Of a DNA stretch of 64,000 bases, positions 57,401-63,400 are shown piece after piece (position 1 is the stretch's first letter; the number at the start of each line of letters is the position of its first letter). The DNA lies in NCBI RefSeq assembly GCF_011045215.1, contig NZ_CP049201.1. The stretch is one strand, 5' to 3'. Source of the stretch: Escherichia coli. GTDB lineage: Bacteria; Pseudomonadota; Gammaproteobacteria; Enterobacterales; Enterobacteriaceae. A program made the position numbers.

Positions 57401-60400
57401 ACGCGAAAGCCAGCATGACCGTAGGCACCAACCTGGATACTGTCTATTTCAAACGTCATGGTCAGGTTACAGGAAACAGCGCTGAGTTCGGTTTTCATCC
57501 GGATTTTGCTGGTATCTCTGTTGAACATTTAAGTAGCTATGGCGATCTCGACCCGCAGGAAATGCCGCTGCTGATCCTTAACGGCTTTGAATATGTGACT
57601 CAGGTTGGTAACGATCCTTATGCAATCCCGCTGCGAGCAGATACCAGCAAACCGAAGCTGACCCAGCAGGATGTGACCGATCTGATCGCCTATCTGAACA
57701 AAGGTGGATCGGTGCTGATCATGGAAAACGTGATGAGCAATCTTAAGGAAGAGAGCGCGTCTGGTTTTGTGCGTCTGTTGGATGCTGCAGGTCTGTCAAT
57801 GGCACTGAACAAGTCGGTGGTGAATAACGATCCTCAAGGGTATCCGAACCGCGTTCGTCAGCAGCGCGCAACGGGCATTTGGGTCTATGAACGTTATCCT
57901 GCCGTAGACGGTGCGCTGCCGTACACCATCGATAGTAAGACAGGGGAAGTTAAGTGGAAATATCAGGTAGAAAACAAACCTGATGACAAACCGAAGCTGG
58001 AAGTTGCCAGCTGGCTGGAAGATGTAGATGGCAAACAGGAAACGCGTTATGCCTTTATTGATGAGGCCGATCATAAAACAGAGGATTCTCTGAAGGCTGC
58101 GAAGGCAAAAATCTTTGAGAAGTTTCCTGGATTAAAGGAGTGTAAGGACCCAACTTACCACTACGAGGTCAACTGTCTGGAATATCGTCCTGGCACGGGG
58201 GTTCCGGTTACTGGTGGCATGTATGTTCCACAGTATACGCAACTAAGCCTTAACGCCGACACGGCAAAAGCGATGGTGCAGGCTGCGGATTTAGGCACCA
58301 ACATTCAGCGTCTGTATCAGCATGAACTCTACTTCCGGACCAATGGTCGCAAAGGTGAGCGTCTGAGCAGCGTCGATCTGGAACGTCTGTACCAGAACAT
58401 GTCGGTCTGGCTGTGGAACGATACGAGCTATCGTTATGAAGAAGGCAAAAATGACGAGCTGGGCTTTAAAACGTTCACCGAGTTCCTGAACTGCTATACC
58501 AACGATGCCTATACCGATGGCACACAGTGCTCCGCAGATCTGAAAAAATCGCTGGTCGATAACAACATGATCTACGGTGACGGTAGCAGCAAAGCGGGCA
58601 TGATGAACCCGAGCTATCCACTCAACTATATGGAAAAACCGCTGACGCGCCTGATGCTGGGCCGTTCCTGGTGGGATCTGAACATTAAGGTTGATGTGGA
58701 GAAGTACCCTGGAGCGGTATCTGTAGGGGGAGAAGAGGTTACTGAAACCATCAGCCTGTACTCGAATCCGACCAAATGGTTTGCAGGTAACATGCAGTCA
58801 ACTGGCCTGTGGGCACCGGCTCAGAAAGAGGTCACCATTAAGTCCAATGCGAACGTTCCTGTGACCGTCACCGTGGCGCTGGCTGACGACCTGACCGGAC
58901 GTGAGAAGCATGAAGTTGCGCTGAACCGTCCGCCAAGAGTGACTAAAACGTACTCTCTGGACGCTAGCGGTACGGTGAAGTTCAAGGTGCCTTACGGTGG
59001 CCTGATTTATATCAAGGGCAATAGCTCTACCAATGAATCTGCCAGCTTCACCTTTACTGGCGTGGTAAAAGCACCGTTCTATAAAGACGGCGCATGGAAA
59101 AACGATCTGAACTCACCGGCTCCGCTGGGCGAACTGGAGTCTGCCTCGTTCGTCTATACCACACCGAAGAAGAACCTGAATGCCAGCAATTACACTGGCG
59201 GACTGGAGCAATTCGCTAACGATCTGGACACCTTTGCCAGCTCGATGAATGACTTCTACGGTCGTGATGAAACGAGCGGTAAGCACCGGATGTTTACCTA
59301 TAAAGCATTGACGGGACATAAACATCGTTTCGCTAACGATGTGCAGATCTCCATCGGTGATGCGCACTCGGGTTATCCGGTAATGAACAGCAGCTTCTCG
59401 ACGAACAGCACCACGCTGCCGACGACGCCGCTGAACGACTGGTTGATCTGGCACGAAGTAGGGCACAACGCCGCAGAAACGCCGCTGACTGTTCCAGGCG
59501 CGACCGAAGTGGCGAACAACGTGCTGGCGCTGTACATGCAGGATCGCTATCTCGGCAAGATGAACCGTGTCGCTGACGATATTACCGTCGCACCGGAATA
59601 TCTGGAGGAGAGCAACAACCAGGCATGGGCACGCGGCGGTGCGGGTGACCGTCTGCTGATGTACGCACAACTGAAGGAATGGGCAGAGAAAAACTTTGAT
59701 ATCACGAAGTGGTATCCAGAAGGTAACCTGCCTAAGTTCTACAGCGAGCGTGAAGGGATGAAAGGCTGGAACCTGTTCCAGTTGATGCATCGTAAAGCAC
59801 GCGGCGATGAGGTCAGCAATGACAAGTTTGGCGGTAGAAATTACTGTGCCGAATCCAACGGTAACGCTGCCGACACGCTGATGCTGTGTGCCTCCTGGGT
59901 CGCCCAGACGGATCTTTCGGAGTTCTTTAAGAAATGGAATCCAGGTGCGAATGCTTACCAGTTGCCGGGGGCGAGCGAGATGAGCTTCGAGGGCGGTGTG
60001 AGCCAGTCGGCTTACAACACGCTCGCGTCACTCGATCTGCCGAAACCGAAGCAAGGGCCGGAAACCATTAACAAGGTTACCGAGCATAAGATGTCAGCCG
60101 AGTAAGCCTGTATGCCGGATAAGGCGCTCGCGCCGCATCCGGCATGAAATAAGGCGCACCGGGTCAACACATATGCCCGATGCGCAAGCTTATCGGGCCT
60201 ACAGAGAGGGAAAGCTGCGTTTATTTGCGTTGGCAGACACCTGTAGGCCGGATAAGGCGCTCGCGCCGCATCCGGCATGAAATAAGGCGCATCGGGTTAA
60301 CACATATGCCCGATGCGCCATCTTATCGGGTCTTCAGGGAAAGCCGCGATTACTTGCGTTGGCAGATACCTGTAGGCCGGATAAGGCGTTTTACGCCGCA

Positions 60401-63400
60401 TCCGGCAAGTTACAACAAACAACCTTTAACCATGCTTTTTGATGTTTTTCAGCAATACCCCGTGGCGATGCCCATACTGGCTACCGTCGGAGGATTGATC
60501 ATCGGCAGTTTTTTGAATGTGGTGATTTGGCGTTACCCCATCATGCTGCGCCAACAAATGGCGGAGTTTCATGGTGAAATGCCGAGTGCGCAGTCAAAAA
60601 TAAGCCTTGCGCTACCGCGTTCGCACTGCCCACATTGTCAGCAGACCATCCGGATACGTGACAATATTCCGCTGCTCTCCTGGCTGATGCTCAAAGGGCG
60701 CTGCCGTGATTGTCAGGCGAAAATCAGCAAGCGTTATCCGCTGGTGGAGTTATTGACGGCACTCGCTTTTTTGCTGGCGAGCCTGGTGTGGCCGGAAAGT
60801 GGATGGGCGCTGGCGGTGATGATATTATCCGCCTGGCTGATTGCCGCGAGCATCATCGACCTCGATCACCAATGGCTGCCCGATGTTTTTACTCAGGGCG
60901 TATTGTGGACGGGACTAATTGCGGCATGGGCGCAGCAGAGCCCGCTCACGCTACAAGATGCAGTCACCGGCGTCCTGGTGGGATTTATCACTTTTTACTC
61001 GCTGCGTTGGATAGCCGGAATAGTTCTGCGTAAAGAAGCATTAGGCATGGGCGATGTATTACTTTTCGCCGCTTTAGGTGGCTGGGTGGGGGCGTTGTCG
61101 CTGCCCAATGTGGCTTTAATCGCCTCATGCTGCGGCCTGATATATGCCGTTATTACAAAAAGAGGATCAACCACACTGCCTTTTGGACCGTGTTTAAGTC
61201 TGGGCGGTATAGCAACACTTTATCTACAGGCATTGTTTTAATGATAACCACGTCATTATCAAAGTGACATTTTAACTCTTATTAATAACCTTAGAGATTA
61301 TTTACCATGTCGATAAAACAAATGCCAGGGAGGGTATTAATATCGCTATTGTTGAGCGTTACAGGATTATTAAGTGGCTGTGCCGGCCATAATGAAAATG
61401 CCAGTTTACTGGCGAAAAAACAGGCGCAAAATATCAGCCAAAACCTGCCGATTAAATCTGCGGGATATACCTTAGTGCTGGCACAAAGTAGCGGCACGAC
61501 GGTAAAAATGACCATTATCAGCGAAGCGGGTACTCAGATCACGCAGACGCCAGACGCCTTTTTAACCAGCTATCAACGACAAATGTGCGCTGATCCAACG
61601 GTGAAATTAATGCTCACTGAGGGAATTAATTACAGCATAACGATTAATGATACACGTACAGGTAACCAGTATCAGCGGAAACTGGATCGTACCACCTGTG
61701 GAATAGTCAAAGCATAACGTCGGGTAGATATAAATTGGCGCGGGTTGTTTTTCGTGACGCACGAATTTATCTCATTCAATGGCTGACAAAAATTCGTCAC
61801 ACTCTTAACCAGAGACAATCTCTTAATACAGACAAAGAGCATCTGCGAAAAATTGCACGCGGGATGTTCTGGCTGATGCTGCTTATTATTTCTGCAAAAG
61901 TGGCGCATTCACTCTGGCGTTATTTCTCCTTTTCTGCGGAATATACGGTGGTTTCCCCATCGGTGAATAAACCGCCCCGTACGGATGCAAAAACGTTCGA
62001 TAAAAATGACGTGCAATTAATCAGCCAGCAAAACTGGTTTGGCAAATATCAGCCCGTCGCCGCACCGGTAAAACAACCCGAACCTGCACCTGTGGCCGAA
62101 ACACGTCTTAATGTGGTGCTGCGCGGGATCGCCTTTGGTGCCAGACCTGGCGCGGTTATTGAAGAAGGTGGCAAACAGCAGGTCTATTTGCAGGGGGAAC
62201 GGCTTGGTTCTCACAACGCGGTGATTGAGGAAATCAACCGCGACCATGTGATGCTGCGCTATCAGGGAAAAATAGAGCGCCTGAGCCTGGCTGAAGAAGA
62301 GCGTTCCACCGTTGCCGTGACCAACAAAAAAGCTGTCAGTGACGAAGCAAAGCAAGCTGTTGCTGAACCTGCTGTCAGTGCGCCAGTTGAGATCCCGACC
62401 GCCGTGCGTCAGGCACTGGCGAAAGATCCGCAGAAAATTTTTAACTATATCCAGCTTACGCCTGTGCGTAAGGAGGGGATTGTCGGTTATGCAGTGAAGC
62501 CGGGGGCAGATCGTTCTCTGTTCGATGCCAGCGGTTTCAGGGAAGGCGATATCGCCATTGCGCTAAATCAGCAGGATTTCACTGATCCACGAGCAATGAT
62601 TGCTCTGATGCGGCAGTTACCTTCAATGGATTCCATTCAACTTACGGTTTTACGCAAGGGTGCGCGCCACGACATTTCCATCGCGCTGCGCTAACCGCAT
62701 TTTATCCAGGAGAATCATTCATCGTGTTTTGGCGTGATATTACGTTGTCGGTCTGGCGTAAGAAGACAACTGGCCTCAAAACAAAAAAGCGTTTACTGCC
62801 GCTGGTGCTGGCAGCGGCATTATGCAGTTCACCGGTCTGGGCGGAAGAAGCCACTTTCACCGCTAATTTTAAAGATACCGACCTGAAATCGTTCATCGAA
62901 ACCGTCGGCGCTAACCTTAATAAAACCATCATTATGGGGCCGGGCGTACAGGGGAAAGTGAGTATTCGCACCATGACCCCGCTCAATGAACGCCAGTATT
63001 ACCAGCTATTCCTTAACCTGCTGGAAGCACAGGGGTATGCGGTCGTACCGATGGAAAACGACGTGCTGAAGGTGGTGAAATCCAGCGCCGCAAAAGTCGA
63101 GCCGCTGCCGCTGGTTGGTGAAGGCAGCGACAACTACGCGGGCGATGAAATGGTCACCAAAGTAGTGCCGGTACGTAATGTGTCGGTACGCGAGCTGGCA
63201 CCGATTCTGCGCCAGATGATCGACAGCGCAGGCTCAGGCAACGTTGTTAATTACGATCCCTCCAACGTGATTATGCTCACCGGACGCGCCTCCGTTGTGG
63301 AGCGCCTGACGGAAGTGATCCAGCGTGTGGATCACGCGGGTAATCGCACTGAAGAGGTGATCCCGCTGGATAACGCCTCGGCTTCGGAAATCGCCCGCGT

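Follow-up and report, generated by a model that had tools for sequence, protein, structure and literature searches.

Repetitive extragenic palindromic (REP) sequences, or palindromic units (PU), are imperfect palindromes of 30-40 nt capable of folding into a stable hairpin, are defined by a GTAG (or CTAC) foot and a two-base mismatch in the stem, and they occur combined into bacterial interspersed mosaic elements (BIMEs), of which BIME-1 consists of a y unit, a z1 unit and a long linker often bearing an IHF site, and BIME-2 of y and z2 units in tandem copies (PMC3333891). As a general rule, how many tandem BIMEs a locus carries differs between strains (PMC3333891). Deletion of one such array, REP325, increased expression of the downstream gene about 8-10-fold and decreased the upstream mRNA, the effect being partly Rho-dependent, and tandem gene pairs containing REPs exhibited, with a large spread, a median log upstream:downstream expression of 0.96, compared to -0.09 in controls (bioRxiv 10.64898/2026.03.23.713779). 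Deletion of a REP shortens mRNA half-life (Newbury 1987, as summarised in PMC12306157), and a REP less than 16 nt away from a stop codon has been reported to stall ribosomes as they terminate, with lowered translation of the gene upstream (Liang 2015, as summarised in the same source). Here we describe a tandem REP array from a 64-kb window of the Escherichia coli contig NZ_CP049201.1 (by the window we mean the whole analysed stretch of 64,000 nucleotides), where it separates the gene sslE (yghJ) from pppA, the gene opening the block of the T2SS-beta (type II secretion system) machinery.

The array is delimited by two open reading frames (ORFs) on the + strand. The sslE ORF, identified from the ORF list and from matching genomes, in which RefSeq annotates a lipoprotein metalloprotease SslE, spans 55528..60105 and terminates with a TAA stop codon at 60103-60105; its TTG start at 55528 is a mechanical one, and the real start may lie further downstream. 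The pppA gene, coding for a prepilin peptidase of 269 amino acids, spans 60432..61241, beginning with an ATG at 60432, and is followed by gspS2/yghG and then by gspC and gspD. The sslE-pppA gap is thus 326 bp long (60106-60431). Tandem Repeats Finder recognizes in it a tandem array at 60107-60407 with a period of 133, 2.3 copies, 88% matches and a score of 459, which covers 301 of the 326 gap bases, starts one base past the sslE stop and ends 24 nt short of the pppA ATG. Direct repeats of 101 nt (60107/60240) and 53 nt (60207/60336), both with 92% identity, are found in the gap, as are three large palindromes (60110-60144, 60243-60277 and 60372-60407), and CGCCGCATCCGGCA is present in it three times without any change. 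Chance does not account for the array: where 2.25 occurrences of the half-site GCCGGATAAGGCG (at most two mismatches) would be expected in the window, there are 12, a number attained in none of 100 shuffles, and the 356-nt RNA folds with a z-score of -6.7 relative to shuffled sequences.

All three repeated palindromes match the Y-type signature GTAGGCCGGATAAGGCG-loop-CGCCGCATCCGGCA, with G rather than T in GCCGGAT. The Z-type signature GCCTGATGCG...CTTATCAGGCCTAC, with T in GCCTGAT, is not borne by any of them, as they carry GCCGGAT/ATCCGGC. Because y is the unit that BIME-1 shares with BIME-2, copies of the GCCGGAT type at this locus represent Y and not Z units. The GCCGGAT unit is likewise common to the BIME with an IHF-type linker at 16650-16860 of the window and to the Y-l-Z2 consensus of naRNA4, the repeat of REP325/naRNA4 being GGCCGGAUAAGGCG...CGCCGCAUCCGGCA followed by GCCUGAUGCGA...UCUUAUCAGGCC. 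On the + strand, the units come in alternating orientation in the order Y (GTAG first), z1-like (CTAC last), Y, z1-like and Y, with linkers between them. A first-pass annotation of this DNA had described a 326-bp gap filled by an array that ends 24 bp before pppA and is built from a tandemly duplicated unit of about 130 bp; this geometry agrees exactly with the ORFs and with the Tandem Repeats Finder result (period 133, 2.3 copies). The same annotation had classified the three palindromic copies as Z-type REPs, which was wrong, all three being of the Y type. It had also mentioned a second palindrome, and this does exist, but the count of three units was too low, as two inverted z1-like units and two truncated arms are present as well.

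The first Y unit (GTATGCCGGATAAGGCGCTCGCGCCGCATCCGGCA, 60110..60144) lies on the mRNA strand in the GTAG-first orientation with its foot tetranucleotide degenerated to GTAT, and folds with -24.0 kcal/mol (z = -4.2); its stem begins at 60111, 5 nt past the sslE stop. The second Y unit (GTAGGCCGGATAAGGCGCTCGCGCCGCATCCGGCA, 60243..60277; -20.9 kcal/mol) and the third one (GTAGGCCGGATAAGGCGTTTTACGCCGCATCCGGCA, 60372..60407; -21.7 kcal/mol, z = -4.5) both have the foot GTAG, and the latter, apart from one additional T in the loop, is identical to the REP published as TGCCGGATGCGGCGTAAACGCCTTATCCGGCCTAC when that is read in reverse complement. The Y units are thus 35-36 nt long, with folding energies from -20.9 to -24.0 kcal/mol, and in all three folds a 2x2 internal loop AA/GC separates the outer and inner stems, forming the bubble typical of REPs. 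The two z1-like units, both inverted and 29 nt long, are TGCCCGATGCGCAAGCTTATCGGGCCTAC at 60174..60202 (CTAC last, -13.5 kcal/mol) and TGCCCGATGCGCCATCTTATCGGGTCTTC at 60307..60335 (with the foot degenerated to CTTC, -10.7 kcal/mol). The head-to-head spacer preceding each of them measures about 29 nt and includes an additional z1-like arm truncated at its 5' end. The first arm (ATAAGGCGCACCGGGT, 60149..60164) can pair with the head of the z1-like unit that follows, giving a long-loop hairpin (-17.6 kcal/mol), and the strongest of the secondary hairpins (16 nt, 88% complementary, -25.5 kcal/mol, z = -4.7) has the second one (ATAAGGCGCATCGGGT, 60282..60297) as its left arm. The long-loop hairpin between an arm and a z1-like unit competes with the unit's own, weaker hairpin (-10.7 to -13.5 kcal/mol). 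The z1-like and Y units are joined tail to tail by two linkers: the first (AGAGAGGGAAAGCTGCGTTTATTTGCGTTGGCAGACACCT, 60203..60242) is locus-specific and has neither an IHF consensus nor a significant fold, and the second (AGGGAAAGCCGCGATTACTTGCGTTGGCAGATACCT, 60336..60371) is a part of the direct repeat. As is usual for REPs, the array is wholly extragenic, lying between a stop and a start codon, and array queries find a median of 5-6 matches per E. coli genome.

How the z1-like units relate to the described unit types can be judged from the window itself. With z1 distinguished by a short loop and z2 by a long inner stem, canonical z1 units are located outside the array, at 16657-16685 and at 16770-16798 of the same window. 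Compared to the first of these, the z1-like units of the sslE-pppA gap exhibit a compensated T>C / A>G change (giving GCCCGAT/ATCGGGC) and a loop shorter by 1 nt. The region 16650-16860, situated between the convergent exbD gene and a gene for a YghA-like dehydrogenase, is occupied by a tandem pair of BIME-1-like elements, each composed of z1 (GCCTGATGCGCTACGCTTATCAGGCCTAC), a linker with the IHF-like motif ATTCAACATGTTG and y (GTAGGCCGGATAAGGCG...). The IHF consensus WATCAANNNNTTR, searched for with at most one mismatch, occurs once in each linker of this region and is absent from 60106-60431. The sslE-pppA array is therefore not an IHF-binding BIME-1, as its linkers lack the IHF consensus and its unit is tandemly repeated, nor is it a BIME-2, a type with a short S linker: no z2 unit is present and the head-to-head spacer of about 29 nt includes an extra arm, although the tandem repetition as such fits. 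By exclusion of both types, it is an atypical BIME, a class made up of the remaining combinations of y, z1, z2 and linkers in multiple tandem copies, variable in number between strains (PMC3333891).

Two further assignments were considered and rejected. The first hairpin of the naRNA4 model (Rfam RF02564), corresponding to Y, aligns to all three Y units, with sub-threshold scores of 37.0 bits (the second unit), 35.9 bits (the third unit) and 30.8 bits on the + strand, to be compared with the gathering threshold of 59.5; membership in this family is hence excluded. Elsewhere in the window, matches to naRNA4 above the Rfam threshold occur at 16725-16795 and at 27768-27844, the latter being a pair of Y and Z2-type REPs that exceeds the gathering score on both strands (82.8 and 59.7 bits). 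Nor does the segment between the Y units behave as a dispersed REPIN-like mobile doublet, as a 90-nt query derived from it corresponds to essentially one locus per genome. No repeat feature is listed in the sslE-pppA gap in the RefSeq annotation of K-12 (NC_000913.3, in the copy consulted), sslE, yghJ and pppA are not mentioned in the REP325 preprint and have no match in the RepRanger supplements, and our literature search retrieved no paper pairing yghJ with "repetitive extragenic palindromic".

To place the locus in a broader context, we surveyed 5,426 complete E. coli genomes, about 3,600 of them sslE-positive, and inspected ten alleles in detail. The sslE-pppA junction was present in 27 of 40 evenly spaced matches, and the comparison of REP copy number across strains, which had been suggested at the outset, reveals a polymorphic site with gaps of 129, 139, 146, 147, 163, 197, 326 and 600 bp. 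The commonest alleles are those of 129, 139, 146, 147 and 163 bp, which comprise one Y unit, a z1-like unit that is whole or partly deleted, a different linker and an internally deleted last Y unit. A gap of 197 bp with the arrangement Y, z1-like, Y is found in K-12 and in enterotoxigenic E. coli (ETEC) H10407, whose sequence is identical to that of K-12 at 237 of 239 positions; the K-12 type is represented by about 920 genomes. The duplicated, 326-bp type is carried by about 127 of the 5,426 genomes, as estimated from matches of at least 95% to the 90-nt query, with the presence of two copies verified specifically in the rows inspected. The query itself matches 1,568 genomes, in each at a median of one place. 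The largest allele seen, 600 bp in the strain E600003 (NZ_CM128598.1, locus L011, 861-1460), includes nine units (five Y and four z1-like), and the copy number of the repeated unit ranges across strains from 0.5 to 4.3. Identity between units amounts to 93-98% within E600003 compared to 89% between units 1 and 2 of the window, and these differing within-strain identities indicate that the amplifications arose separately in different lineages, in keeping with the general behaviour of BIMEs (PMC3333891). No part of the array other than the first Y unit, adjacent to the sslE stop, persists in all ten alleles inspected; the stem of this unit starts 8 nt past the stop in the K-12-type alleles (5 nt in the window). 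The last Y unit of the 197-bp gap in K-12 and H10407 (the third unit, GTAGGACGGATAAGGCG..CGCCGCATCCAGCA) carries two stem-breaking substitutions that do not compensate each other, so the distal Y unit is decaying in these strains. Growth and shrinkage of the array would most readily be attributed to REP-associated recombination or slippage rather than to selection for a given copy number.

The array also serves as a site of insertion of mobile elements. [quoted passage not shown] In the strain XH988 (NZ_CP019355.1), IS621 is inserted exactly at ATCGGGCCTAC, with the CT-core junctions ...ATCGGGC-CT-TGTAT... and ...ACAGTAT-CT-ACAGAGA... (locus L014, 1420-1450, and locus L010, about 1270-1290), and the same junction is found in 13 of the 5,426 complete genomes. 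The strain Z142-7 bears a copy of the segment sslE-pppA-gspS2-gspC-gspD on a 94.5-kb plasmid (NZ_CP159687.1, locus L012, about 1025-2624), in which the first Y unit has its loop interrupted by the REP-specific element IS1397 (GGCGTTCAC[IS1397]TTCACACGCC).

The promoter upstream of yghJ was reportedly credited with "a major role" in the abstract of the 2007 study by Yang and colleagues. The genes yghJ(sslE)-pppA-yghG-gspC-M form one transcript in ETEC H10407, initiated mainly from that promoter (Yang et al. 2007, J Bacteriol 189:142, as cited in PMC5012682, PMC3707838 and PMC2808357), and papers citing the same study state that sslE and 13 downstream genes share a transcript in this strain and that the promoter is under temperature control by H-NS/StpA. 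A tiling array study of BL21(DE3) likewise reported sslE, pppA, yghG and yghF to be co-transcribed with the T2SS genes (PMC5435950). As the gap in H10407 is occupied by the 197-bp array, transcription has been demonstrated to cross a Y, z1-like, Y array. The co-transcription of sslE and pppA proposed in the first-pass annotation is thus correct, although it had already been published (by Yang et al. 2007, as known from the citing papers, and in the BL21(DE3) tiling array study); co-transcription across an intergenic REP array at this locus has been known since 2007, and the element is of a known kind. We found no intrinsic terminator on the + strand of the gap, the single match being on the - strand. 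The array hairpins are followed by UGAAAUAAGG or AGUUACAACA and there is no U-run on the + strand, which speaks against a strong intrinsic terminator and agrees with read-through.

The 24-nt leader of pppA (AGTTACAACAAACAACCTTTAACC, 60408..60431) is rich in A and C, unpaired in both the minimum free energy and the centroid folds, and conserved across the array variants. No match to a Shine-Dalgarno sequence was found in it (60408-60434), which suggests that initiation at pppA is weak and independent of such a signal. We also considered a version of PppA extended at the N-terminus, as the pppA frame runs open through the array for 84 codons, starting with an ATG at 60180 (60180-60431), and judged it to be an artefact of the repeats. 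The extension is encoded by REPs, the gap lengths in other strains differ by non-multiples of three, and the RefSeq start of PppA is the ATG equivalent to that at 60432 in every genome inspected.

What does the array do in the cell? We consider it probable, though far from certain, that this polymorphic atypical BIME with its amplified 129-133-bp unit, placed inside the sslE-pppA-gspS2-gspC-M operon, stabilises the sslE mRNA and lowers downstream read-through, the regulatory part of this proposal being drawn from analogy. The array would have expanded by head-to-tail amplification of a unit comprising one Y REP, one z1-like REP of the opposite orientation and a locus-specific linker. On the polycistronic mRNA, 3'-to-5' exonucleases would be stopped at the Y hairpins, which are stable (from -21 to -24 kcal/mol), and the sslE segment would in this way be stabilised, while less transcription would run on into pppA and the gsp genes, partly via Rho, because 326 nt of the RNA are structured and go untranslated. 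The lower read-through would in turn leave the SslE substrate in excess over the secretion machinery. The hairpin 5 nt past the sslE stop may in addition slow terminating ribosomes, and pppA would be translated by new initiation on the unstructured A/C-rich leader, which has no Shine-Dalgarno sequence. A role as a partial terminator and a stabiliser of the upstream mRNA, anticipated in the first-pass annotation, is plausible in the light of the analogous cases. Several considerations nevertheless count against the proposal. Its regulatory part is wholly analogical. The effects of REPs have been found to be context-dependent and widely variable, with mRNA half-lives not generally lengthened (bioRxiv 10.64898/2026.03.23.713779). 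The range of 0.5-4.3 units together with the distal decay suggests that selection acts weakly or not at all on the greater part of the array; decayed units are represented by the internally deleted last Y of the short alleles, the last Y of K-12 and H10407, and the second z1-like unit of the window with its altered foot. Finally, synthesis and secretion of SslE track together, and differences between strains have been put down to control of the sslE promoter by H-NS/Fis and not to the intergenic region (PMC5012682).

The main rival explanation is that the array may be neutral baggage: a REP cluster, selfish or prone to slippage, that came to lie between co-transcribed genes and is passively transcribed with no meaningful effect on the ratio of SslE to the T2SS. 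We regard this as somewhat unlikely, yet to be taken seriously. In its favour are the gap lengths of 129-600 bp in strains retaining both sslE and the gsp genes, the many units that are decayed or internally deleted, and the presence of two REP-targeting insertion sequences within the array in some genomes, and both the high variability of the REP effects reported in the preprint cited above and the explanation of strain differences in SslE at the level of the promoter (PMC5012682) point the same way. Neutrality sits less comfortably with the retention of the stop-adjacent first Y hairpin in every allele inspected, with the very high stability of the hairpins, and with the upstream bias of REP-containing tandem pairs as a class. 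Alternatively, the main effect could be translational. The Y hairpin 5-8 nt past the sslE stop would then stall the ribosome, leading to mRNA cleavage, tmRNA tagging and less SslE; this possibility, again derived from analogy and combinable with stabilisation and polarity, we deem unlikely without considering it remote. The TAA and the stem of the first Y unit, which begins at 60111, are 5 nt apart, and the spacing is close in all alleles inspected, but SslE is made and secreted abundantly in several strains (PMC5012682, PMC3707838). It may be added that ribosome stalling would act in the direction opposite to the idea of "more SslE" that accompanied the first description of the array.

It is very unlikely that the array instead splits two transcription units, with a separate promoter for pppA and the gsp genes located inside it or in the 3' end of sslE, even though the reported wording "a major role" for the promoter upstream of yghJ would allow for minor ones. 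A scan for sigma-70-like consensus sites gave no match on the + strand in 59800-60700, nor anywhere in 55000-62000; the same scan, however, misses the experimentally mapped sslE promoter, so it is too insensitive to be informative about the gap. The earlier argument that the gap offers no room for a pppA promoter is therefore weak: the gap bases are indeed nearly all REP or linker, with 24 nt left before the ATG, but the argument is no more than suggestive given the insensitivity of the scan. The published data from RT-PCR (reverse transcription PCR), fusions and tiling arrays are those of a single transcript. Even less probable, in our view, is a role exerted at the level of DNA, with the array serving as a binding or cleavage site of gyrase, HU, IHF or Pol I, as a nucleoid organiser, or as a source of a naRNA-like small RNA. 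There are reports of such proteins binding to BIMEs (PMC3333891), and the weak naRNA4 matches fall on all three Y units. However, the linkers lack the IHF consensus, unlike those of the BIME at 16650-16860, no Z2 unit of the gyrase-associated BIME-2 type is present, the naRNA4 matches reach 31-37 bits as opposed to the threshold of 59.5, and the nucleoid compaction ascribed to REP325/naRNA4 has not been reproduced (bioRxiv 10.64898/2026.03.23.713779).

It is conceivable, though doubtful, that the unit copy number (gaps of 129-600 bp) constitutes a heritable, strain-specific rheostat, in which more units would bring stronger polarity and a higher ratio of SslE to T2SS-beta, with the junction ATCGGGCCTAC additionally acting as a preferred landing site of IS621 that would sometimes uncouple sslE from the secretion genes. 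An excess of SslE over the machine would suit a secreted substrate, if polarity is indeed at work. On a sober view, the array is one among several hundred REP/BIME clusters of E. coli and matters little beyond good annotation. The gap lengths listed above do, all the same, make up a natural allelic series in a virulence-associated operon (129, 139, 146, 147, 163, 197, 326 and 600 bp), which could be used to test the notion of "REPs as tunable dials" on a pair consisting of a substrate and its machine. The first hairpin is near enough to the sslE stop for the ribosome-stalling model to be tested on a vaccine-candidate antigen, and the array includes a perfectly matching natural target of IS621 that is occupied in 13 complete genomes.

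Apart from the REP elements, the window contains matches to two Rfam families of small RNAs on the - strand: C0719 at 53079-53300 (299 bits), just upstream of a glcA-like ORF (53379-55061), and ES173 at 10881-10944 (99 bits).

Among the described systems, the closest to the sslE-pppA array is REP325, a BIME-2 array located between yjdM and yjdN and known as the source of naRNA1-6, which is likewise an alternating tandem array of Y and Z units filling the gap between co-transcribed genes on the same strand, and for which partial attenuation of the downstream gene, in part dependent on Rho, and stabilisation of the upstream mRNA have both been shown. REP325 differs in that its Y-l-Z2 units number six, measure 77 bp and are accompanied by spacers, whereas the 2.3 units here measure 129-133 bp and combine a z1-like unit with a truncated arm and a unique linker. 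BIME-1 elements of the RIP/RIB kind, such as those following exbD at 16650-16860, resemble the array in that y and a relative of z1 point in opposite directions, with their tails joined by a linker of about 36 nt. They are, however, normally single-copy, with an L linker bearing an IHF site and with GCCTGAT/ATCAGGC in the stem, in contrast to the tandem arrangement, the missing IHF consensus, the GCCCGAT/ATCGGGC stem and the loop shorter by 1 nt encountered at sslE-pppA. The intercistronic hairpins of the malE-malF REPs, known from the 1987 work of Newbury et al., are said to shield the upstream message from 3' exonucleases, so that the upstream product exceeds the downstream one. The malE-malF element consists of two units and its effect was measured there, and the likeness of sslE-pppA to it is one of analogy. 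Finally, the array shares with the stop-proximal REPs of the nrdAB class (Liang, Rudd and Deutscher 2015) a stem that starts less than 15 nt past the stop codon, at 5 nt in the window and at 8 nt in the K-12-type alleles.

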